Virus record (IMG/VR): IMGVR_UViG_3300032770_000004
Coordinates: 47,375-79,374 of that record
Reading direction: 5' to 3' (one strand)
DNA from: a virus
DNA length: 32,000 bases
In this document: positions 934-26,616 of the stretch, piece after piece
Position numbering within the stretch: the stretch's first letter is position 1
Layout: every line of letters starts with the position of its first letter
Position numbers and translations under genes: made by a program
The notes under the pieces: model-generated
The model's database searches: none
What the model saw: only the letters and a program-made list of their open reading frames with translations
Told to the model about the DNA's origin: nothing

Positions 934-1005
934 AGGCCGTAAGTGTTACGGTAGCACGGGAGCCTCCAAAACTCCACAGAGAGGGTTCAATTCCTTCACG
1001 GCCTG
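934..1005 (+). tRNA. tRNA-Trp (CCA)
   Basis: Perfect acceptor AGGCCGT/ACGGCCT, D stem GTGT/GCAC, anticodon loop CTCCAAA, T arm GAGGG-TTCAATT-CCTTC, discriminator G. Confidence 0.85.
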
Positions 1006-1071: not shown

Positions 1072-1144
1072 TCCGAGGTCGTCCAATTGGTAGGACACTC
1101 CGCTGTTAACGGAGAGAGTGTTGGTTCGAATCCAACTCTCGGAG
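1072..1144 (+). tRNA. tRNA-Asn (GUU), canonical type I
   Basis: Acceptor TCCGAGG/TCTCGGA, D stem GTCC/GGAC, anticodon stem CTCCG/CGGAG with loop CTGTTAA, T arm GTTGG-TTCGAAT-CCAAC, discriminator G. Confidence 0.9.
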
Positions 1145-3794: not shown

Positions 3795-3800
3795 ATCGTC

Positions 3801-3971
3801 ATGGACAATCAAACCAAGTCGATTGAAGTGAGTTCTGGCGGTCTTGGCATCGGTTCTGTCATCGCTGCCATCCTTTCGTGGACGACCAACCACTCGGTTC
3901 TGTGGTGTATTCTCCATACCCTGCTCGGATGGCTCTACGTGGTTTTCTGGCTGTTCGTTCACAAGCTGTAG
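3801..3971 (+). CDS. 56-aa membrane protein
   Basis: Absent from the ORF track. Translation MDNQTKSIEVSSGGLGIGSVIAAILSWTTNHSVLWCILHTLLGWLYVVFWLFVHKL. Has its own promoter. Confidence 0.6.
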   Translation: MDNQTKSIEVSSGGLGIGSVIAAILSWTTNHSVLWCILHTLLGWLYVVFWLFVHKL

Positions 3972-3979
3972 GAGAACCT

Positions 3980-4186
3980 GTGGACCCGTCTGACGCCATC
4001 TGCGTACTGGTCATTCACGAAGGTGAAGCTCATAGCGCCGAAGAGGCGTTGCGTTTGGCCAACAAGCTCTTACAAGACAGAAAGGATGAGATCGCCCACC
4101 TGGAAGTAGTGACCAGATACGTCTACCGACCTATAGAACAAGTACGTTACCTTGTCAGAGCGACAAAGAGGGAGAAGAAAATATGA
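3980..4186 (+). CDS. hypothetical protein
   Basis: GTG 3980 is preceded by AGGAG, directly after the stop of the previous gene. The ORF-track start at 3878 would overlap that gene. Confidence 0.5.
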   Translation: MDPSDAICVLVIHEGEAHSAEEALRLANKLLQDRKDEIAHLEVVTRYVYRPIEQVRYLVRATKREKKI

Positions 4187-4353
4187 AGAAGCGCCCCATA
4201 GTCATCAATCTCCAGGCCGAAATCCTGGCCAGGGTTCTTCAACTTGGCGGAAAGTCGATGGTTGCTGATGGTATCGTCACAGTCGAGATGCCCGATGGCA
4301 ACGTCTGGGATTTTACGTTGCCACAGGTTGTCCAGAAAGGTCTGAGCAACTAA
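4183..4353 (+). CDS. 56-aa hypothetical protein
   Basis: Absent from the ORF track. ATGA overlap, GGGAG upstream. Translation MKKRPIVINLQAEILARVLQLGGKSMVADGIVTVEMPDGNVWDFTLPQVVQKGLSN. Confidence 0.55.
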   Translation: MKKRPIVINLQAEILARVLQLGGKSMVADGIVTVEMPDGNVWDFTLPQVVQKGLSN

Positions 4354-4355
4354 AG

Positions 4356-4361
4356 TAAACT
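4356..4361 (+). promoter_or_regulatory. -10-like TAAACT 6 nt upstream of a tRNA 5' end
   Basis: Same geometry as TAATCT before the tRNA at 171. No convincing -35 element. Confidence 0.35.
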
Positions 4362-4367
4362 GTTGTC

Positions 4368-4451
4368 GTATCGTTGGCATGTCTGGTGATTGCGCCCGCC
4401 TGTTAAGCGGTGAGCGAAAGCTCTAGGAGGGTTCGATCCCCTCACGATACG
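4368..4451 (+). tRNA. 84-nt type-II-shaped tRNA with GUU (Asn) anticodon
   Basis: Perfect acceptor GTATCGT/ACGATAC, 3-bp D stem with 11-nt loop, anticodon stem CCGC/GCGG with loop CTGTTAA, variable arm GAGC-GAAA-GCTC, T arm GAGGG-TTCGATC-CCCTC, discriminator G. Confidence 0.7.
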
Positions 4452-4463
4452 AGGAGAAGAACA

Positions 4464-4817
4464 ATGAACGGCTGTTTGACAGAAGAAGAGTACAAGAACA
4501 TTCAGATCGGAGACGAGTTTGAGATTCTTTATGATGGTTGGGGATATGGATGGGAACCGGGAACCGTCTTTGTGGTGTTTGAATTCCATCCAACGGAGCG
4601 TACTCCTAGAATTCGTAGTTTGAGTTCCAACAGTATTGGAGCATTGGCCAAGACTACAGCCACGGAGGTTGATCCCCATTCTCACAAGCCATACATCAGG
4701 CGCATTGTCAGGAATGACATCGTTTTGATTGAGATCGATTCTGGCGGCCGTTTGACAACATGCTCGATTCCTGCTAAGGATTTTGACCCGAAGAAGCACA
4801 AGAAGTTTACATTCTGA
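4464..4817 (+). CDS. hypothetical protein
   Basis: GAGGAG lies 7 nt upstream of ATG 4464. The ORF-track start at 4410 lies inside the tRNA. Confidence 0.7.
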   Translation: MNGCLTEEEYKNIQIGDEFEILYDGWGYGWEPGTVFVVFEFHPTERTPRIRSLSSNSIGALAKTTATEVDPHSHKPYIRRIVRNDIVLIEIDSGGRLTTCSIPAKDFDPKKHKKFTF

Positions 4818-4823
4818 GGCACG

Positions 4824-5210
4824 ATGAAACTGAACAAGACTGAAATCATGGAGAGACGCAAGCGCATTGAAACGATGCGCACAGAGCGCATGGCGCTATC
4901 CAAAAAACTGTGGGAAGGCATGGGTAAAGCTGCTAATGCCGGTGAGTCGCTGCGTGAGGTAGCTCGCGTACTTGAGGTCGAGGAAATCGAAAAGTATCGT
5001 AAAGAGAATGCGGCTGAATATGCCAAGGTGGAAGAGCTGCGTCGTGAAGAGCATACGCTTCAAGCCGAGATTAACGGCAGCACGACTGGCTGCGATCACC
5101 TTTATGACAACAAGACTTCGGCACTAAAAACTCGTGCTCTGTACGGCTCCGATCCTGATGACAAACCGGAAGTAATGTGTGATATTTGTGGTGAAAGATG
5201 GCCTGGATGA
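4824..5210 (+). CDS. hypothetical coiled-coil protein with C-terminal Cys pair
   Basis: GAGG SD; ORF track. Confidence 0.7.
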   Translation: MKLNKTEIMERRKRIETMRTERMALSKKLWEGMGKAANAGESLREVARVLEVEEIEKYRKENAAEYAKVEELRREEHTLQAEINGSTTGCDHLYDNKTSALKTRALYGSDPDDKPEVMCDICGERWPG

Positions 5211-14240: not shown

Positions 14241-17024
14241 ATGTCAGCAACAAAGGACAAGCGAAAGGTCGCTAGTGTCGCCGTTATCCACGGCGGCAGG
14301 TTGCTATGGCTTTTGCGTGATGATTCCAAGAAGCTCTGCCTTCCTGGCGGCAAGTTTGAGGAAGGCGAGGAACCTCTCGACGCTGCTGTCCGTGAACTGA
14401 AAGAAGAGACCGGCATCGACGCTGAGCCCAAAGAGCTAGAGTTCTTGGGCAGCGAGAACGTGCCCGGTACCAAGCTCCACGTCTATTCGTTTAAGTATGA
14501 GCCAGAGAAAGCTCCCGAAATCGACCTTTCCAAGGATCCAGATAAGGAAGCGTGTGGCTATCACTGGTTCGAGGAACTTCCTTCTGAGGAAGAGCAATTC
14601 GTACCACAGGAGAGGAATGTCACGCTGCGTCTCCTTGGAATGGCCGTTCAAGACCTGAACAAGATGGCCATCAAGGACATTCGACCAGGACCAAAAATTG
14701 GATCCGACCGCATCTTTGACTATTCCCATATCCATCCTGGCTTGACAATTCACGAAATTCCCTTTTCGGACAAATGGCATCATCCTCATGTATTGGTAGC
14801 GAACATTCAACATGATCCTGAAAATTACTCGGAACAGTCGAATGTAGAAGGTACCCTCCTTGCGAACGGAATTCATGGTATTCCCGATCTGAATTTTACT
14901 TATTCGGAAGTTCATCCTGAACATCGAGGCCAAGGAATTGGCCGTAAAATGTATGAAGCCCTGATGGCACATGCGCTTCATAATTACGGCACTACCAGGG
15001 TTGTAGGCGGCCTTCACAGCACGCTAGCTCACGAAGCCCACAAGAAGCTATCTCAGAAGCACGGGTTTGAAGGCTATGACCCCAAACCCAATTGGGATCC
15101 AGAGTTTGAAGAGGAGCCTTTTCGCGGTCCATTCAATGATGCTTACGGAAAGTACTCCTATACCATCAAGTCCGAAAGCCTAGCTAAGTCTCAGCCAGAA
15201 TGGCGATCCAAGGATGGTCTGAAGATTCCTAAGAGTGGCACGCCTGCGCGTAAAGATTGGGATAAGGAATACCACAAGCGCCTTGTTGACGTATTCGCTG
15301 GTGGCGACAAAGAGCGTCTTAAGCTCGTGAAGATTCCGGTTACTCCAGCTCTTTCTGGAACCAATTTCGCTGGCAATAAGGATCGCTTGAATCTCTACTC
15401 TCGCATGATTCGTGGCGGCGACAAACTGCCTCCTGCTGTCGTTAAGCGTAATGGCATCGGCTGGCATGTCGTGGATGGCAATCATCGTGCCCAGGCTGCC
15501 TTGAATGCCCAGGTTCCCGAAATGCTCGCGTACGAGTTGATTGATCCTCCGAAGATGAAGAAGGCCGAAGAACCCTTCAAGGGTCTGGCCGAGCATATTG
15601 TTGGCTCGCTGACTGATGATTTACGAAAGCCCAAGTATAAGGGTCACGAGAACCCACTCGCAGGACACTGCTACGTCGCTTCAGAGGCTCTCTGGCACAT
15701 GTTGGGAGGCCCCGATAGTGGCTGGGTACCCCAGACAATTCGGCACGAAAACGACACGCACTGGTACCTGAAGCACAAGGACACCGGCAAGATTCTAGAT
15801 TTGACAGCTGGTCAGTTTAAGACACCAGTTCTCTACGATAAAGGTCGTGGTTGCGGATTCCTGACCAAAGAACCGTCGAAACTAGCCAAGGAATTGATCA
15901 ATCGAATCAACGTTCGACGCGCCCAGAAGAACGATCCAACCCTGAAGAAGGGTGTTCCTGGAGCTATGCTCGCAGCTGGTCTTTTGGCATCGCCTATTCA
16001 CACCGATGTGATGAAGCAGCCAGAACCAAAGGTCCAGCAACAACAAGTAGCTGCCTGGACTCCTGATGGACTAGATTCAGACCTAATTCCAATCGCTCAT
16101 CTGGAATCGAGCTTTGGCAAGAACATCAATCACGCTCCCAACCCAAAGGGCGAGTATTACACCGCTTACGGTGCCGTTGGCATGAAGCCAGTGACAGCCC
16201 ATGAAGAGTACAATAAGAATCAAACCCTTCAGAAGCTCTATCCGAACCTCAAGGATCCTGCTGAATTCATGAAGGCGATGAAGACTATCCCCCGCTTCTA
16301 CAATCTATTGGCATCAACACACTTCGCCCGGATGAAGCACCTCCATGGGTCTGCCGCCAAGGCCGCCTATGCATGGAGGCATGGCCATACTGCCGCTATG
16401 GGCGCATCTCCAGAACAAATTGACAGCGACTTGTATGTCCAAAAGTACCGCCATCTTGCGTCTCAGGCAGGTCTACAGAAAGGTGAGGACTTGATGAAAG
16501 CGATCAGCGACCTAAAGCCCGGTAAGCCAATGGATTTTGGGGTCGATTCTCAGTACTACGATTACAGCCATCTATTGGGATCTCCTGTTCTCAAAAAGAA
16601 GTACAAAATCATCCTCGCTCAAGCTCCCAATAGCTATCGTAATGGCCATCACCTCGAAGCCAAGATTTTCCATAGACCACCAGGAATGAGCAAAGAACAG
16701 GCGGCCGATTGGACTAACTGGCAGAACATTGGTCACCTTAGAAGCAATACAGCCGGACGGTTACTTTACCCATCAGTGGCCAAGTTAGATCCAGCCCATC
16801 AAGGTCGTGGACTAGGCAAGGCCTTGTATCTCGCTACTTTCAAGCACGGCCAGCACTTCTTAAAGACCCACACCATTGCCGGTGAAGTTCACAGCTCCAT
16901 GGCCCATCGTGTCCACGAATCAATCGCCAAGGAACACGGTCTCGCCTACAATGCCCACAAGTACGGACCAGAGATTGGCCCGAATGATGGTGCGTACGGC
17001 GAATACGAATACGCCCTGAAATAA
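14241..17024 (+). CDS. 927-aa polyvalent multidomain protein (NUDIX, GNAT-like, ParB-like, SLT-like, GNAT-like)
   Basis: Perfect NUDIX box GKFEEGEEPLDAAVRELKEETGI. GNAT motif A-like HRGQGIGRKMYEAL and HQGRGLGKALYLAT. ParB/sulfiredoxin-like VVDGNHRA. SLT-like LESSFGKN...AYGAVGMKP. GAGG SD. Confidence 0.85.
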   Translation: MSATKDKRKVASVAVIHGGRLLWLLRDDSKKLCLPGGKFEEGEEPLDAAVRELKEETGIDAEPKELEFLGSENVPGTKLHVYSFKYEPEKAPEIDLSKDPDKEACGYHWFEELPSEEEQFVPQERNVTLRLLGMAVQDLNKMAIKDIRPGPKIGSDRIFDYSHIHPGLTIHEIPFSDKWHHPHVLVANIQHDPENYSEQSNVEGTLLANGIHGIPDLNFTYSEVHPEHRGQGIGRKMYEALMAHALHNYGTTRVVGGLHSTLAHEAHKKLSQKHGFEGYDPKPNWDPEFEEEPFRGPFNDAYGKYSYTIKSESLAKSQPEWRSKDGLKIPKSGTPARKDWDKEYHKRLVDVFAGGDKERLKLVKIPVTPALSGTNFAGNKDRLNLYSRMIRGGDKLPPAVVKRNGIGWHVVDGNHRAQAALNAQVPEMLAYELIDPPKMKKAEEPFKGLAEHIVGSLTDDLRKPKYKGHENPLAGHCYVASEALWHMLGGPDSGWVPQTIRHENDTHWYLKHKDTGKILDLTAGQFKTPVLYDKGRGCGFLTKEPSKLAKELINRINVRRAQKNDPTLKKGVPGAMLAAGLLASPIHTDVMKQPEPKVQQQQVAAWTPDGLDSDLIPIAHLESSFGKNINHAPNPKGEYYTAYGAVGMKPVTAHEEYNKNQTLQKLYPNLKDPAEFMKAMKTIPRFYNLLASTHFARMKHLHGSAAKAAYAWRHGHTAAMGASPEQIDSDLYVQKYRHLASQAGLQKGEDLMKAISDLKPGKPMDFGVDSQYYDYSHLLGSPVLKKKYKIILAQAPNSYRNGHHLEAKIFHRPPGMSKEQAADWTNWQNIGHLRSNTAGRLLYPSVAKLDPAHQGRGLGKALYLATFKHGQHFLKTHTIAGEVHSSMAHRVHESIAKEHGLAYNAHKYGPEIGPNDGAYGEYEYALK

Positions 17025-17041: not shown

Positions 17042-19168
17042 ATGGAAGACGGAATTGAGCAGTTACTACAGGTAGATGATCCGATTGAGCGCAAGCTTGC
17101 TCTCAAGTCGAAGATTGTCGAGCCTTATCATCTTCGAATGGCACTCATGGATGAAGATCCAGATGTTCGCCTTGCCGCAGCCAAACATCCCAGTCTCACG
17201 CCAGAACTGATTAAGGAAGTCTTGCGTGGTGATGACAAATGGCTAGCAGAGCAGATTCTTCAACGTCCTGATTTGCGCCCAGAAGAGCTTGAGCACGCTT
17301 TAGCCGATCCAGACCTTAGGGGAACCGCAGCCAAGCATCCAGCGCTCTCTGAAGCCCAGCGGAACGCCTTAATCGAGGATCCTGAGACCCCAGACGGAGC
17401 CAGAGAACAGGCAGCCCAGGGCCTCATCAAGAACATTGGCGTGTTGACATATCCGCAGCTCGGTGAAGGCCGAGCCTATTCCATGCCGATGATTATTGAC
17501 CACCGTCCTGATGACAATATTCGTGGAACTACTGTCTACAACGCTAAGCGTACTCAGCCGATGAAGCCGGGCCAGGGTTATCTCTATAGCCACACCTCGG
17601 GCCATAATCCACAGGCCGAGCATGCTGGTGAAAGCCACGAAGCACAGCACATTCTCTTTGCCAAGCTTAAGCAGCGTTTCGGCCGCGAGGCTGGTTATCG
17701 CATCATCGCCAACACGCTTGCCGGTCTTGACCATGAGCATCGCCAGCATGTCTTCAATCTTCTGGACGCACATAAGCCCAAGTCTGCTCAGGATCCAATC
17801 CAGCGACCGGAAGAGGCTATTGCATATCTCCACAACTACCTGATGGATCCAGACCATCGACGCCAAGTTCATGTCAATATGCGTATCAGCCAGAACATTA
17901 ACGCCATGCGCGCGAGCGTGCAGAAGGCACGTAAGGCTTGGCATATGCTACGTGCTAGAGCTGAGGCTCTACGTCCAGAGGAAGTGGGCGTGCAGGTCAA
18001 GAAAGACGAACAGGTCATCGGTGATTGGGTTGAGAAGCTCAAGAAAAGCCAAGACGTTGATGATCCAAAAGTTGCAGACCATGTCGGAATGGACATGAAG
18101 CTGCCTGTTTTGTTACAGGCGGTCAAGTTCCTAACAGGCAAGGAGTTGGATCCAAGCATCGTACGACGCCATCTTATTGAGCAGGACGATGACATGAAGG
18201 AAGCCGTTCTTGCGGCAGCCGGTTTGACATCAAAAGAAGAACGCAAAGCTTTTGATGCCATTATGGATTTAGCTGAGCTGAATAAGTCTGAGGCAAAAGT
18301 AGACGCCAAAGACATTCAGGCACTTCTACCAGAAGATGAGCCTGTCGCTAAAGAAGTCCGCTGGTCATTCCAGCACGGAGAAGTCAAACCCGTAAAGCTC
18401 GGCGGTAAACACAGTAAGGGCACGTTGCTAGCAAAGGATTCAGACGGTCGCCTGCTTCTAATCAAGCCTGGATCCGGCAAGATTTCGCCAATCCGTGGAG
18501 CGCGCGAGGAAAAGGCCAATCAATCCCGTCGCGAGGCTGCATTCTCGTCTGTGGCTCGTTCTTGGGGTTTCAATCGTACTGTCCCTAGGGCTACGCTTCT
18601 AATCATCGATGGCAAGGAAATGGCGGTTATTGACATGTTGCCTTTGGATTGGTCGAATCTTCACAAGACTCGCATGGTGGATCCAACCGTTCCACAGAAG
18701 GCACTACGTGACTATCTAGACAGAGGTATTGTTCACAAATGGGCCGTGCTCGATTATGTACTCGGCAATGGAGATCGCCATGGTATGAACATGATGGTAT
18801 CGCCAGCCGATGAAAATCACAAGATCGCTCTCATTGACCATGGGTCGGCATTTGCTGGTTCTTCATTTGATCCTGGCCAGGACAAGAGCGCCTTTGTGCC
18901 CTACTATCTGCGCGCCTGGGGTCCACAGAAGGGCTTCATGAAGCTTAGCGAGAAGCAAAAGCTCGATACGATGCCCGTTCTTCACGAAACAAAGGATTTC
19001 GAACTACGAGATTGGATCGTCAAGCTCTCTGAAGAGGAGCTTGCTGCCCGTCTTCACCGTTTTGGCATCAACCCAGAACCAAGCGTTGAGCGCCTAAAAG
19101 CACTCAAGAATGCTGTGGCTCAAGCCAAGAGCGCGTCGCGTGTAATCAACGAGTTCTGGATCAAGTAA
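17042..19168 (+). CDS. 708-aa protein: N-terminal LRV/HEAT-like repeats plus C-terminal PI3/PI4-kinase-like catalytic domain
   Basis: Repeats DPDVRLAAAKHPSLTPELI and DPDLRGTAAKHPALSEAQ. Catalytic loop LGNGDRHGMNMMV at 18764-18790, and IDHGSAF at 18833-18853. Confidence 0.8.
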   Translation: MEDGIEQLLQVDDPIERKLALKSKIVEPYHLRMALMDEDPDVRLAAAKHPSLTPELIKEVLRGDDKWLAEQILQRPDLRPEELEHALADPDLRGTAAKHPALSEAQRNALIEDPETPDGAREQAAQGLIKNIGVLTYPQLGEGRAYSMPMIIDHRPDDNIRGTTVYNAKRTQPMKPGQGYLYSHTSGHNPQAEHAGESHEAQHILFAKLKQRFGREAGYRIIANTLAGLDHEHRQHVFNLLDAHKPKSAQDPIQRPEEAIAYLHNYLMDPDHRRQVHVNMRISQNINAMRASVQKARKAWHMLRARAEALRPEEVGVQVKKDEQVIGDWVEKLKKSQDVDDPKVADHVGMDMKLPVLLQAVKFLTGKELDPSIVRRHLIEQDDDMKEAVLAAAGLTSKEERKAFDAIMDLAELNKSEAKVDAKDIQALLPEDEPVAKEVRWSFQHGEVKPVKLGGKHSKGTLLAKDSDGRLLLIKPGSGKISPIRGAREEKANQSRREAAFSSVARSWGFNRTVPRATLLIIDGKEMAVIDMLPLDWSNLHKTRMVDPTVPQKALRDYLDRGIVHKWAVLDYVLGNGDRHGMNMMVSPADENHKIALIDHGSAFAGSSFDPGQDKSAFVPYYLRAWGPQKGFMKLSEKQKLDTMPVLHETKDFELRDWIVKLSEEELAARLHRFGINPEPSVERLKALKNAVAQAKSASRVINEFWIK

Positions 19169-23360: not shown

Positions 23361-23408
23361 AAACCGCCTTGGCTCAAAAACAATGAGCCGGGCGGTTTTG
23401 TTATTTGC
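23361..23408. terminator. bidirectional rho-independent terminator
   Basis: AAACCGCC-TT-GGCTCA loop AAAACAA TGAGCC-G-GGCGGTTTTGTTATTT, with A-rich 5' and T-rich 3' flanks. It sits between convergent genes. Confidence 0.8.
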
Positions 23409-23919
23409 TGCGTACCGGACACCAGTTTGAATGGCCTGTGGCGAATGGCTGAATGCCGCATGCCGCAGCTCCACATTCACAAACTCCGAAATCGACAGAT
23501 CCCTCCTTTTCCTCTGCTTCATGGAGATCTGCGAACGGATCGAATGTAATAATGTTATGTACCGCTGCTCCGGGTACTCCCCGGCTACTGCCCGAATGTG
23601 TCAGCGTGACATCTGAATAGACCTTGCATTTGCGACAGTTCGTGCAGGTATTCGACGTTATTGAATGCTTCGACCAGGGACAACCACACTCAGCACACAT
23701 GTCGCTCTGCTTTGGAGGACTCATCCAAGGAGGCAAAGTTTGCCAAAGCCCCTTTGCGTAGATCACACCGTTACAAAACTTGTGATGGCCACCTCGATGT
23801 GTGCAGACCATGAGATTGCTGCCACCGGGGATTACGCATAGATTGCTACAAGTACAGTTGTACGTATTTTCGCCGCAATCTGTACAATCACCACTAACCC
23901 AATCATACCATTCCTTCAT
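23401..23919 (-). CDS. Cys-rich protein with C-terminal CxCG...GHSxWC motif
   Basis: The ORF-track start at 23961 is TTG; ATG 23919 lies 6 nt after TGgTATAAT. About 25 Cys residues. The tail CECGAAACGIQPFATGHSNWCP is shared with 27571-28206. Confidence 0.65.
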   Translation of the reverse strand: MKEWYDWVSGDCTDCGENTYNCTCSNLCVIPGGSNLMVCTHRGGHHKFCNGVIYAKGLWQTLPPWMSPPKQSDMCAECGCPWSKHSITSNTCTNCRKCKVYSDVTLTHSGSSRGVPGAAVHNIITFDPFADLHEAEEKEGSVDFGVCECGAAACGIQPFATGHSNWCPVRSK

Positions 23920-23925
23920 AGCACG

Positions 23926-23934
23926 ATTATACCA
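23926..23934 (-). promoter_or_regulatory. extended -10 promoter, predicted leaderless
   Basis: On the - strand: TGgTATAAT, 6 nt, ATG 23919. Confidence 0.45.
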
Positions 23935-24019
23935 TACCCTAGGAGAGATTCGGACTCTCAACCTTCCGGGTCATTACTCCGGCTGCTCTGGCCAATTGGA
24001 GCTACTAGGGCGAACTTCT

Positions 24020-24304
24020 TCAGTTCTTGAGGGTAATAGGATCGACCTCGTCCTCGGACTCGGGCTTGTCGCCTCCGCGCATCCTTTCGAACTCGGTCGG
24101 TTCAGGCATCGTGTTCACGAGTCCTTGCAGTAGGCTCTTGATGTTGTTGTGAACCTGGGGTTCGGCCGGGTGGAATCGATGCTTGTAGCACCACGTGCTA
24201 ATGGCGTCGACCAAATCGGTGGCAAGCTCCTGCATATGCTTACCGGATTCACCCCTGAAATTGCTGGCATCTACTTCTTGTACTACGTCTTTGGGATTGC
24301 TCAT
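24020..24304 (-). CDS. hypothetical protein
   Basis: ATGA overlap with the RNA ligase gene stop. Confidence 0.65.
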   Translation of the reverse strand: MSNPKDVVQEVDASNFRGESGKHMQELATDLVDAISTWCYKHRFHPAEPQVHNNIKSLLQGLVNTMPEPTEFERMRGGDKPESEDEVDPITLKN

Positions 24305-25332
24305 TTTTGTTCTCTCTTGAGTTGATTTGCTACCATTACCTCACGCATCCAATGAGCGTGGGTGGTCACGTGACCCTTACGAACGTATTTTCCCACGGAC
24401 TCTTTGAATTGTCTATAGGGAAACGACGACGCACTTCTAACTACATACCCTTCACATGGATCTCCTTGGTATTCCGGAATGTACAGGTTTTCGATTTTGG
24501 AGCGATCTCCGGGTCCGCGATAGAGCGTGGGAACCATTTGCAGCCCCAGCAACGCACACCATTCTACGGTCTCATCCCACGACAGAATTTCGTTCTTCTC
24601 GTTCCAGATGGAGAAGACCTGGAACCAGTCATCGAGATTGAGATAGTGGATACTGTGTTTGGCATAAAGGTTTTCGCCACAGATACGCCAGCCTTCGGGA
24701 ATCTCGTAAGAGATTCGACCGTGCAGAGATTTAACCCAGTTGCGGCTGGGGTGAGGCTCGTGAGTCAGCGAGCGGGCATGGATGAAGTCCTTGTACATGG
24801 TGGTATTCTCGCCATCCATCTTGATGGTAGCGATCACTTCTCGGCCCTTGAATGGATCGGGATTTGTCATCATTCGATCGTCTTTGGTGAGCCCAGGACT
24901 CCAAGGTAGATGATATGTACGAGGATACTTGACGTGCGTGGTAAAGAGAGTGAGAGCACCACCGTCTCCGAGAATCTTTTGAACGGACTGATCAAAGAAG
25001 AGATCACCACGCAATCTGGTGCCATTGGGAAGAACAGGATTCCCCCATTTGTCATAGATCTGATCGTTGTAGAGGTGCGGAGGCAGGATCGCCTTTCGAA
25101 TTCCAGCGGCCTCTCTGATCTGCTCAACCGAGAGCTTGGTCTGTTCAGCTTCCATATGATGAAGGCCGCACAAACTAGCACCGTTGTCCAGATAATAGCC
25201 CTCATCGGGCCATAGGCGGCGCTCGATAATGTGGTGAGCATCAACCGCTGGCGCCTTGCAAATGACGCACTGATGATTGTCGCGCTCGAAGACCCCTTCT
25301 CGGAATTGATCGCGAGTTTTAAGGTCGCTCAT
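24301..25332 (-). CDS. HNH domain fused to an RNA ligase (Rnl2/PF09414-like nucleotidyltransferase)
   Basis: N-terminal HQCVICKAPAVDAHHIIERRLWP...NGASLCGLHH. Ligase motif I is IKMDGEN; later motifs are ICGENLY, EGYVVR and GKYVRKGH. Confidence 0.8.
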   Translation of the reverse strand: MSDLKTRDQFREGVFERDNHQCVICKAPAVDAHHIIERRLWPDEGYYLDNGASLCGLHHMEAEQTKLSVEQIREAAGIRKAILPPHLYNDQIYDKWGNPVLPNGTRLRGDLFFDQSVQKILGDGGALTLFTTHVKYPRTYHLPWSPGLTKDDRMMTNPDPFKGREVIATIKMDGENTTMYKDFIHARSLTHEPHPSRNWVKSLHGRISYEIPEGWRICGENLYAKHSIHYLNLDDWFQVFSIWNEKNEILSWDETVEWCALLGLQMVPTLYRGPGDRSKIENLYIPEYQGDPCEGYVVRSASSFPYRQFKESVGKYVRKGHVTTHAHWMREVMVANQLKREQK

Positions 25333-25550
25333 GGCTCCTTAGTGATTGGCAGACGCAACAAATCGAGAGCAGCTTGGAGTTGGTTGGCTCGTTGAGTCTC
25401 TGCCAAATGACGTAGAACAGCCTTCATAAGCTGATCATTCGTCTTGAACAAGACTGCCCTAAGGGCCTGAATCTCTTTCAGGGCGGCAGGCAAATTGGTA
25501 GGTAGCGGAGGACCATCCTGGCGGTTTCTCTCGAATGGGTCAGACATCAT
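25329..25550 (-). CDS. hypothetical protein
   Basis: ATGA overlaps at both ends. Confidence 0.65.
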   Translation of the reverse strand: MMSDPFERNRQDGPPLPTNLPAALKEIQALRAVLFKTNDQLMKAVLRHLAETQRANQLQAALDLLRLPITKEP

Positions 25551-26380
25551 CTACCTCCGTGTCCAAAGGAAGTGGGTCTCCACATTCCTAAGTAGTTTCC
25601 TACTTCTAGTACGACCCGATGCAGTTTGTCAAGGTCTGCTCTCTTGTCGTTGATTATCTTACAGCTGAACCACCAATCAGGAATAGAGTCTTGGTCCTGT
25701 TCACTTACGTGAGCGCTGAAGCTCGCTGCCCGTTCTTCTGGATTGACAACAAGAATGGGAGCACCACCGAGCGCCTTAACCGAAAGAATCTCATTACGGA
25801 AACGCCCATCGCTGATAATCGCAACGGCTGGGCGTTCTGGGCCAGGAATGTGACCCTTGATTTTGTCGTATGTGCCACCTTCAGATAGAATCTTTACGGC
25901 TAGGTCTCGCGCGTGATCAGCCCAGATGGTGGGCTTGATCGATCGGCCAAACTCAGTACCGAGAGTTTGGAGAATGTATCTTGGGGTGGTCTCACGGGCC
26001 AGACTATCGTGGTCGGCTACCATACCGAGCCAGTCATTAAGCTTGCCATAAACATAGCCGCGTTGACTATGGCCAAATTTAAATCCCAGTTCATTTAGCC
26101 AGTTGCTGACGGTCATTCCCTTAGAAAGAATGTGAAAGTTACGATGCAAGTCATGCCAATCGTAACCGAAGAGTTTAGGATCAAGAGAGACCGGCTTGTT
26201 TCGCATCTCGCTGGGTCCCCAGAGCTGTTCTTCTGTAAAGCCGAAGAGCTGCATCGCGAAGCGCTTAAGAGGATCAGCTTGAGCGATGACAACACCGTTG
26301 AATTCTTTCTGGAGAATTGAAGCTACTGTATCCTTTCCTGATCCTGCCTTTCCTGCTAAAATTACAAGTGGATATTGCAT
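25547..26380 (-). CDS. P-loop kinase, T5-type dNMP kinase-like
   Basis: Walker A GKAGSGKDT, LQTLGTEFGR, ISDGRFRNE, HVSEQ. GGAG lies 7 nt upstream of ATG 26380. The ORF-track start at 26530 overlaps the upstream gene. Confidence 0.7.
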   Translation of the reverse strand: MQYPLVILAGKAGSGKDTVASILQKEFNGVVIAQADPLKRFAMQLFGFTEEQLWGPSEMRNKPVSLDPKLFGYDWHDLHRNFHILSKGMTVSNWLNELGFKFGHSQRGYVYGKLNDWLGMVADHDSLARETTPRYILQTLGTEFGRSIKPTIWADHARDLAVKILSEGGTYDKIKGHIPGPERPAVAIISDGRFRNEILSVKALGGAPILVVNPEERAASFSAHVSEQDQDSIPDWWFSCKIINDKRADLDKLHRVVLEVGNYLGMWRPTSFGHGGR

Positions 26381-26418
26381 CGACTGTTCTCCAAAGCTTT
26401 CAATTGTTGGGATCACTC

Positions 26419-26616
26419 TCAGGTCTTGTGGCCGCTCTTCAAGAATCCCAATAGTATCACAGCAGCGAAGGCTTGCCAGTATCCAATGTGTGGCATGATC
26501 GTGAAGCCACTTGCTCCGAGATAATTCCACACTATCTTGAATATAGCAGGCTGGCCGAACAACAGGATTAGGTATCCTAAAAGTTCGCCCAGCTGCTCTT
26601 CAATCGACTTTTCCAT
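26419..26616 (-). CDS. small membrane protein
   Basis: The ORF-track start at 26628 is GTG. ATG 26616 has an AAGGA SD and follows the upstream TAA. Confidence 0.6.
   Translation of the reverse strand: MEKSIEEQLGELLGYLILLFGQPAIFKIVWNYLGASGFTIMPHIGYWQAFAAVILLGFLKSGHKT

Follow-up and report, generated by a model that had tools for sequence, protein, structure and literature searches.

The gene at positions 4368-4451 (+ strand) of a 32,000-nucleotide (nt) stretch of viral DNA, hereafter the window (positions 47,375 to 79,374 of IMG/VR record IMGVR_UViG_3300032770_000004), encodes a transfer RNA (tRNA) for asparagine, tRNA-Asn(GUU), that carries a long, paired variable arm. In bacteria, such an arm is classically confined to the Leu, Ser and Tyr tRNAs (plus Sec), the type II tRNAs. 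Our best explanation, which we consider probable, is that the gene specifies a phage tRNA that is charged by asparaginyl-tRNA synthetase (AsnRS) and reads AAC and AAU codons, and that it belongs to a phage-restricted class in which a hairpin has been added to a type I tRNA. The class has a defined structure and a broad family membership, its hairpin covaries, and it retains the elements of Asn identity.

The tRNA reads GUAUCGU-UG-GCAU-GUCUGGUGA-UUGC-G-CCCGC-CUGUUAA-GCGGU-GAGC-GAAA-GCUC-UAG-GAGGG-UUCGAUC-CCCUC-ACGAUAC-G, and is divided as follows.

4368..4451 (+): tRNA-Asn(GUU) with a long variable arm, 84 nt including the discriminator; called by ARAGORN and Rfam RF00005, and supported by family alignment and covariation
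4368..4374 (+): 5' strand of the acceptor stem, GUAUCGU; seven Watson-Crick pairs with 4444-4450, G1-C72, pairing probability 0.82-1.0
4377..4393 (+): D arm, GCA(U)/(U)UGC in the Rfam alignment; stem strands GCAU (4377-4380) and UUGC (4390-4393), U13.U22 mismatch, 9-nt loop with G18 and G19, G14 at 4381
4395..4411 (+): anticodon arm, CCCGC-CUGUUAA-GCGGU; loop 4400-4406, anticodon GUU 4402-4404, C27.U43 mismatch
4412..4426 (+): variable region, 15 nt; hairpin GAGC-GAAA-GCUC (4412-4423) and spacer UAG (4424-4426)
4427..4443 (+): T arm, GAGGG-UUCGAUC-CCCUC; 5-bp stem, 4427-4431 with 4439-4443
4444..4451 (+): 3' strand of the acceptor stem, ACGAUAC, and discriminator G73 (4451)

Much of this fold had been proposed in a preliminary description drawn from the sequence, and most of it held. 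The acceptor stem is perfect over its seven pairs, the canonical T arm is present both in the sequence and in the Rfam alignment, and the 4-bp variable arm with its GAAA cap is genuine, with a pairing probability of 0.93 in thermodynamic folding and covariation among relatives. At 15 nt (4 bp plus GAAA), the variable region is a stem-loop of the length (>10 nt) that marks type II tRNAs. The D stem does have three Watson-Crick pairs and a large loop, as described, but the U13.U22 mismatch has to be added to it, and the anticodon stem has to be corrected to 4 bp plus the C27.U43 mismatch. ARAGORN and the Rfam covariance model agree on the anticodon GUU in a 7-nt loop; when the covariance-model fold was checked for a different triplet at this position, RF00005 still placed GUU there.

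RF00005 aligned the element over the full model (1-71) at 40.4 bits, compared to a gathering threshold of 29, with GUU at the anticodon. The gene was overlooked by a default-filter Rfam scan of the whole window (1-32000), and laxer filters applied to the region recovered the long tRNA-Asn at 11 bits over the gathering cutoff. ARAGORN called tRNA-Asn(gtt) at 4367-4452, shifted by one base from the 7-bp register, because C4367 (position -1) pairs with G4451. The family consensus, in which 83 of 86 members have G73, supports the 7-bp register, and the pairing of the -1 C with G73 is probably incidental, the -1 base varying among relatives. The C4367-G4451 pair makes an 8-bp acceptor helix possible, which could affect the RNase P cleavage site.

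The core bases U8, G18 and G19 and the T loop UUCGAUC are kept in the window copy, but position 14 is G rather than A. A14 is present in 79 of 87 relatives, and G14 in the window copy only (1/87). The cloverleaf, at -29.5 kcal/mol, lies 2.1 kcal/mol above the minimum free energy (MFE) structure at -31.6 kcal/mol, which is a different fold. None of the six Rfam-supported tRNAs in the window encodes CCA. The 4368-4451 sequence recurs, identical, on an independent metagenome contig record.

A distant blastn search with the element hit genes of 85-86 nt, annotated as tRNA-Asn, in Salmonella phage PVP-SE1 and in Erwinia phages; these genes align with the same architecture and nearly the same hairpin. 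The hairpin GAGC-GAAA-GCUC itself is common to the window copy and to Vequintavirinae phages, and the PVP-SE1 form, GAGU-GAAA-ACUC, differs from it by a compensatory change. A strict pattern (CUGUUAA-N5-GAGNGAAANCUC) matched 13 IMG/VR contigs, 11 of which were tRNAs. A relaxed pattern, in which the stem sequence was left free, matched 117 viral contigs; with a few from other collections these gave 87 distinct sequences. The set was filtered on the acceptor, anticodon and T stems, and hairpin pairing was not a criterion, so that the covariation result for the hairpin is unbiased by selection. Cells of the cloverleaf plus hairpin were paired in 93.5% of cases in these 87 sequences, compared to 57.9% in column shuffles and at most 44.5% with slid partners, and the covariation score was 0.88, compared to 0.19 in shuffles. 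Each of the three inner hairpin pairs was paired in about 99% of the sequences, with four pair types and 36-44 double-sided changes. The outermost pair, always G-C, is found in 34 of the 87, a sub-class that includes the window copy and in which the central A of the spacer is invariant (33/33 members counted). The 11 independent viral tRNA genes found with the strict pattern, together with the structural covariation, show that the hairpin tRNA is not a chance arrangement.

The window copy matches every element of the family: the CUGUUAA loop, the 5-nt 3' strand after it, the NNNN-GAAA-NNNN hairpin, the 3-nt spacer with its central A, the 5-bp T stem and G73. Leaving the variable region free brought in at least 61 further distinct long tRNA-Asn(GUU), with variable regions of 11-19 nt and with G73 in 60 of 61 among the matches listed. 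Their hairpins were mostly small with GNRA-type loops; GAAA, GCAA, GUAA, UUCG and others were seen. In a scan that admitted short and long forms together, 5-8 long genes stood against about 90 distinct ordinary tRNA-Asn among the matches listed, so that roughly 5-8% of phage tRNA-Asn(GUU) genes are of the long form. A rough extrapolation, calibrated on loci common to the scans, puts the IMG/VR total at about 900 contigs with a long tRNA-Asn.

One long tRNA-Asn, at L007:8642-8725 (-) in our locus numbering (the same as L221), has an acceptor stem extended by an inverted repeat of about 19 bp (ATTATACTCTCTGCTGTGA...TCACAGCAGAGAGTATAAT). The repeat lies near the contig end, and could be a helix that aids processing, or else be related to a terminus or to recombination.

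The class is also common among cultured phages. When two representative sequences were searched for among cultured phages, each had matches in more than 500 records, where the gene is annotated as tRNA-Asn. The hosts of the gene include the T5-like phages SP15, S126 and OSYSP, the T4-like Klebsiella and Enterobacter phages CC31, Mineola and PG7, Proteus phage PM135 and the rV5-like Vequintavirinae, and several phages, PVP-SE1 and Mineola among them, encode the hairpin form as their only tRNA-Asn. In 185,579 bacterial and archaeal species genomes (one for each species, 596 Gb), the strict pattern had no matches and the relaxed pattern had 7. Only 3 of these parse as tRNAs, all of them within phage-like arrays of multi-isotype tRNAs on contigs of metagenome-assembled genomes. 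No match was found in 5,426 complete E. coli genomes. The hairpin tRNA-Asn class is restricted to phages. The sequences themselves are not new, being annotated in hundreds of GenBank records; a literature search that left most subscription journals uncovered found no description of a long variable arm on phage tRNA-Asn or on other phage type I tRNAs.

Asn identity in E. coli, which is transplantable to another tRNA, lies in G73 and the three bases of the anticodon, and G73 acts as an anti-determinant against the leucyl- and tyrosyl-tRNA synthetases (PMC9976931). Both parts of this AsnRS identity set, GUU and G73 (4451), are present in the window copy, as the preliminary description had proposed. 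The family has the same identity profile as ordinary phage tRNA-Asn. Its 1-72 pair is U-A in 57 members and G-C in 27, and the ordinary genes have U-A in 66 and G-C in 21, with G73 in 87 of 90. The window copy has G1-C72. As U1-A72 matters only for the indirect route (non-discriminating aspartyl-tRNA synthetase plus amidotransferase), this pair would imply direct charging by AsnRS, if the tRNA is functional. From the anticodon and discriminator, we infer that the hairpin tRNA-Asn are charged by AsnRS.

The bodies of some members point the same way. Over positions 7-43 the Erwinia-phage member and E. coli tRNA-Asn share 94.6% identity, and in the alignment the phage gene amounts to the host sequence with a net insertion of 10 nt in the variable loop. 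In the best-resolved lineages, the alignments are thus best read as an ordinary Asn tRNA that gained its hairpin by a net insertion of about 10 nt, and not as a Tyr, Ser or Leu tRNA that was retargeted. Other sub-classes have D arms that recall Tyr, Ser or Leu tRNAs. A nearest-neighbour test (D arm plus anticodon stem with the anticodon masked, 2,013 phage tRNAs) found neighbours of mixed isotype whichever sub-class was compared, and is uninformative on origin because phage tRNA bodies are scrambled between isotypes.

Hairpins of this kind are not confined to Asn. We scanned for the same variable-arm geometry with the anticodon left open, sampling in database order, and the counts that follow are among the matches listed. 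The scan gave about 40 Asn loci and 68 other well-formed tRNAs, which comprised CAU (17), CUU/UUU (28), GCA (7), UGU (3) and UUG (3) anticodons, a few Leu, and single Trp, Glu, Ile and Gln(CUG) tRNAs. In this sample the geometry is commonest in Asn, Lys, CAU, Cys and Thr tRNAs. The discriminator was U73 in all 7 Cys tRNAs, A73 in all 17 CAU tRNAs, mostly A73 in Lys and G73 in Trp. Redirection to seryl-tRNA synthetase (SerRS) would require G73 throughout, and disguised Leu or Tyr tRNAs would give A73 throughout. As the discriminator instead follows the rule of each anticodon, the simplest reading is that each hairpin tRNA keeps its cognate synthetase.

The frequency of extended variable regions by isotype was taken from bystander tRNAs of loci that had been fetched with Asn-specific patterns (L004-L123 and L226-L436). 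Variable regions of at least 11 nt were found in 15% of Cys, 13% of Ile, 9% of Thr, 8.5% of Met, 8% of Trp, 7% of His, 3.6% of Lys, about 2% of Phe and Val, and 0.6% of Arg tRNAs. Phage tRNA-Pro also has extended variable regions, within the 3-15% range. Conversely, 36% of phage tRNA-Leu genes (75/206) have a short variable loop like that of type I. The divide between type I and type II is generally blurred in phages. The Asn hairpins, at 13-17 nt, have the size of Tyr and Leu arms, and overlap with Ser only at the shortest arms.

A different position for a hairpin was seen in tRNA-Lys(UUU) genes of 86-87 nt in PVP-SE1 (L001:1332-1417) and an Erwinia phage (L002:1321-1407), which have a GAC-GCAA-GUC mini-hairpin in the D loop. 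ARAGORN miscalled these genes, which represent another decoration of phage tRNAs with a GNRA-capped hairpin.

The element combines features of several known systems. With canonical type I tRNA-Asn(GUU) it has in common the CUGUUAA loop, G73, a U1-A72 or G1-C72 pair and the 7/5 acceptor/T architecture, and the D and anticodon arms of enterobacterial-phage members are almost base-for-base those of E. coli tRNA-Asn. However, the canonical variable region is 4-6 nt, compared to 15 nt here. With bacterial type II tRNAs it shares a paired variable arm of Tyr/Leu size (13-17 nt) and, in the window copy, a large D loop on a stem of effectively 3 bp. Unlike them, its anticodon and discriminator are those of Asn rather than Leu, Ser, Tyr or Sec, relatives in the window's sub-class mostly have a 4-bp D stem, and the hairpin directly follows position 43 without a 5' spacer. 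Bacterial tRNA-Tyr has GUA and A73, where 4368-4451 has GUU and G73. The nematode nev-tRNAs, as Hamashima et al. are said to have found, are tRNA-Gly and tRNA-Ile with a variable arm that are charged with Leu, so that identity follows the body. They too join a type II shape to a type I anticodon, but are eukaryotic, whereas the identity elements of the phage tRNAs follow the anticodon. The allo-tRNAs likewise have a long arm with anticodons other than Leu, Ser or Tyr, some of them in phages and frequently with G73 (PMC5389517). What defines the allo-tRNAs is an 8/4 or 9/3 acceptor/T-stem arrangement together with a D arm like that of tRNA-Sec, and they are believed to carry serine (Mukai et al. 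2017, PMC5389517). The 4368-4451 tRNA is not one of these, having a 7-bp acceptor stem (with an optional eighth C-G pair), a 5-bp T stem and its cognate identity elements.

The surroundings of the gene bear on how it is expressed and on whether the phage needs it. Three features are relevant.

1072..1144 (+): canonical type I tRNA-Asn(GUU), Rfam 65.5 bits and ARAGORN; U1-A72, G73, 5-nt variable loop
4183..4353 (+): upstream small open reading frame (ORF), 56 amino acids, without a family match; stop codon 4351-4353, 14 nt ahead of the tRNA; also a gene call on the metagenome contig
4464..4817 (+): downstream ORF, 117 amino acids, without a family match; ATG at 4464, its GAGGAG ribosome-binding site (4452-4457) abutting the discriminator

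Rfam and ARAGORN thus bear out the second, canonical tRNA-Asn(GUU) that had been noted at 1072-1144, which makes the 4368-4451 tRNA a redundant isoacceptor. Its isolated position is also as first described, 3.2 kb from the tRNA cluster that ARAGORN placed at 171-1145. The TAAACT at 4356-4361 that had been read as a -10-like element is present, but its reading as a promoter was not supported: a consensus scan of 3800-5000 for an own promoter found no sigma-70-like match. Since ORFs on the same strand flank the tRNA closely, a promoter of its own is no more likely than co-transcription followed by processing, and the tRNA is probably cut out of a longer transcript. We found no conserved protein partner adjoining the gene.

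What could the hairpin do? In the mechanism we propose, the tRNA would be processed from the operon transcript, receive CCA from a host enzyme, be charged by AsnRS and decode AAC and AAU. The hairpin would project between the anticodon stem and the D arm and so alter the shape of the tRNA. Nucleases that act at or near the anticodon stem (of the PARIS AriB type, OLD-family Toprim enzymes and other anticodon nucleases) might then have difficulty in binding or cutting it, whereas it would remain acceptable to the synthetase, EF-Tu and the ribosome, and the phage would keep an Asn decoder when the host tRNA-Asn is destroyed. The preliminary description had offered, as a second reading, a divergent Asn decoder that would escape anticodon nucleases tuned to the host tRNA shape. 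By analogy with known tRNA-based counter-defence, we too tentatively suggest that the hairpin may be a shape-based shield from tRNA-cutting defence nucleases, although we would not bet on it. With the same reserve, it could be a general phage counter-defence armour on nuclease-targeted tRNAs (Asn, Lys, Thr, Met, Cys and others). It is possible, if doubtful, that PrrC/RloC-like enzymes would also be among the shape-reading tRNases evaded, with charging and decoding left intact. Such armour, if real, would be a second route of evasion, independent of substitutions in the anticodon stem-loop, and would account for the confinement of the class to phages.

The analogy draws on several systems. PARIS AriB cuts E. 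coli tRNA-Lys(UUU) as well as tRNA-Thr(UGU), and secondarily tRNA-Asn(GUU), between positions 40 and 41; the enzyme also touches the D loop with its second monomer, and features distal to the anticodon loop are needed (PMC12409363). The Lys, Thr and Asn tRNAs of T5 jointly neutralise PARIS (PMC12409363). P2 OLD, against which a resistant phage tRNA-Thr is known, cleaves the anticodon stem of tRNA-Thr(UGU) on both strands (PMC12445682). The hairpin leaves the tRNA three nucleotides away from where AriB cuts, on the side that lies between the anticodon stem and the core. This position, the confinement of the class to phages and the excess of hairpins in isotypes that known defence nucleases attack would fit a shield circumstantially. 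Nuclease-resistant phage tRNAs are, like the hairpin tRNAs, phage copies of nuclease-targeted isotypes, including Asn(GUU). In the known cases, resistance is due to base changes in the anticodon stem or loop, or to a stem that has been shortened (PMC12409363, PMC12445682, PMC10264068), and we found no published example in which an added arm confers it. We had expected T5 tRNA-Asn to be a precedent for the hairpin, but it has none: its variable loop is a normal 5 nt, and its anticodon stem is rewritten. The hairpin-bearing tRNA-Asn of enterobacterial phages mostly keep the host-identical U36-AAUC|C41. A rewritten stem in T5 and an added hairpin elsewhere would look like the pattern expected of two solutions to one pressure.

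A number of points weigh against this account, some of them against the nuclease idea in particular. Many anticodon nucleases read the anticodon loop alone, which is unaltered here. Class IIb synthetases approach from the side of the variable loop, as in the yeast AspRS-tRNA complex, and the hairpin might hinder AsnRS. T5 neutralises PARIS without any hairpin. Moreover, long variable loops can attract rather than repel: MenT3 prefers them on tRNA-Ser (PMC11541572), and retron-Eco7 PtuAB targets the type II tRNA-Tyr (PMC11555353). A few percent of the phage tRNAs of nearly every isotype have extra arms, and with short loops in 36% of tRNA-Leu, relaxed constraint fits equally well. As for the window copy, it deviates from the family (the unique G14, U13.U22 and C27.U43), its MFE structure is not the cloverleaf, and the same phage has a canonical tRNA-Asn that scores better (65.5 compared to 40.4 bits). 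The window itself occurs in wetland/ENA metagenome assemblies, and in one wetland DNA run only.

Alternatively, the hairpin could be a tolerated ornament, a near-neutral insertion at a place where tRNAs permit extra nucleotides, on what is otherwise an ordinary Asn decoder, perhaps with slightly more stable folding. This is what the low frequency of extended variable regions in almost every phage isotype would suggest, as would the loss of the long arm from over a third of tRNA-Leu, the continuous variation of hairpin length and loop (11-19 nt; GAAA, GCAA, GUAA, UUCG and others), the placing of a mini-hairpin in the D loop of some phage tRNA-Lys, and the absence of a conserved protein partner next to the gene. 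Set against these are the compensatory changes that maintain the hairpin over deep divergence, its persistence in hundreds of cultured phages from three unrelated families, and the invariant spacer A in the window's sub-class. Cellular genomes also almost lack the form despite far more sequence, and its distribution over isotypes is uneven (<1% in Arg and about 2% in Phe and Val, compared to 5-15% in Asn, Cys and Thr). On balance we consider an ornament unlikely, if well short of negligible and little less likely than a shield.

A decaying duplicate is a less probable explanation again, and would apply to the window copy only: redundant with the canonical tRNA-Asn at 1072-1144, it could be degenerating or non-functional. 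Its G14, seen once in 87 sequences, and its two mismatches (U13.U22 and C27.U43) would fit decay, as would its Rfam score, the lowest of the window's six tRNAs, its non-cloverleaf MFE structure, its distance from the tRNA cluster and the lack of a promoter-like site in the scan of 3800-5000. However, the acceptor stem, T arm, hairpin, anticodon loop, G18 and G19, U8 and G73 are all intact. The score is well over the cutoff and near those of three sister tRNAs (43.6-44.7 bits), even though the general model penalises the insertion, and the cloverleaf is only 2.1 kcal/mol above the MFE. The 27-43 pair is also absent in 11 of 87 relatives, and the sequence recurs unchanged on the independent contig record.

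Charging by SerRS, which would place Ser at Asn codons fully or in part as a mistranslation or recoding device, we regard as very unlikely. A long variable arm and G73 are indeed the recognition elements of SerRS (PMC5389517), Ser(GCU) shares G73 and is one base off GUU, and the shortest phage tRNA-Ser arms (15-16 nt, 43/153) overlap with the Asn hairpins in size. The window arm, at 4 bp and 15 nt and accompanied by G73, sits at the short end of the phage tRNA-Ser range (15-23 nt). Yet the other hairpin isotypes keep their own discriminators (U73 in Cys; A73 in Met/Ile and Lys) and not G73, so that the hairpin as such is no Ser signal. Enterobacterial-phage members have the body of the host tRNA-Asn, the stems are 3-4 bp as in Tyr and Leu arms and unlike typical Ser arms, and in the phages for which the hairpin form is the sole tRNA-Asn, a proteome-wide replacement of Asn with Ser would be costly.

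Least probable of all is the suggestion, made in the preliminary description, of a Tyr tRNA recruited to Asn codons by a change from GUA to GUU: the two anticodons differ by one base, and some sub-classes other than the window's have a Tyr-like D arm (UACCCGAGUUGGUAGCAGGGG) and a Tyr-like variable arm (1 nt, 3 bp, 4-nt loop, 3 bp, 4 nt), but bacterial tRNA-Tyr requires A73 and typically has G1-C72, whereas the family is almost uniformly G73 and mostly U1-A72 in the proportions of ordinary phage tRNA-Asn, relatives in the window's sub-class have an Asn-like 4-bp D arm, the Erwinia- and Enterobacteria-phage homologs are host tRNA-Asn plus a net 10 nt, and no intermediate forms linking the sub-class to phage tRNA-Tyr were seen. 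Among the 25 phage tRNA bodies closest to the window copy, one was a Tyr, a weak test, and nothing in these comparisons points to a Tyr ancestry for it.

The reading that we prefer, an AsnRS-charged tRNA of a phage-restricted class, implies a population of phage tRNAs, for Asn and less often for nearly every isotype, that have a long arm together with their own identity elements. They raise the questions of how class IIb synthetases handle a type II-shaped substrate, how nucleases that read tRNA shape respond to it, and whether added structure can protect a tRNA. Examples in easily handled phages (SP15 and other T5-like phages, T4-like phages of Klebsiella and Enterobacter, and PVP-SE1/rV5-like phages) make these questions testable. 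Routine annotation may under-report such genes. Default Rfam filters overlooked this one and pipelines label genes of the family as plain tRNA-Asn, so that the structural class has escaped notice.

The window is DNA of an uncultured phage, with genes for thymidylate synthase, a tail fiber and structural proteins, and also for an RNA ligase (PF09414) and a NUDIX-GNAT fusion. By megablast, neither 1.2 kb nor 25 kb of the window found a match among cultured phages, and a back-translated search of IMG/VR with the downstream ORF (4464..4817) gave none either. At a Jiaodavirus-like homolog locus, metatranscriptome contigs proved to be a mosaic of conserved tRNA fragments, possibly with DNA included.

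Two other tRNA calls in the window deserve mention. ARAGORN reported a tRNA-Ile with the unusual anticodon AAU at 23935-24011 (-), overlapping the end of the ORF 23401-23961; it is probably a false positive, as there was no Rfam tRNA match even at E values up to 1. The tRNA-Trp(CCA) at 934-1005 (+) has a C31.A39 mismatch in the Rfam alignment, which leaves a 4-bp anticodon stem, and A8 and U14 replace U8 and A14. Stems of 4 bp in tRNA-Trp(CCA) have been tied to the reading of UGA (Nucleic Acids Research (NAR), 2026; PMC13092985).

The RNA ligase at 24301-25332 (-) matches PF09414 and phrog_24030 (E = 1e-134), and its first ~70 residues also match HNH endonuclease families. It has homologs in jumbo phages at 40-57% identity. 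We considered a tRNA-repair module here and rejected it: the ligase is real, but its neighbour at 25547-26530 (-) is a deoxynucleoside monophosphate (dNMP) kinase and not a polynucleotide kinase. The gene at 14241-17024 (+) encodes 927 amino acids, in which NUDIX and GNAT acetyltransferase domains are fused to a large C-terminal part without a known domain. The next gene, at 17042-19168 (+), encodes a protein of 708 amino acids with a PI3/PI4-kinase-like stretch, and its sole cultured-phage match, at 41% identity, is to a 'kinase' of Myxococcus phage Mx1.

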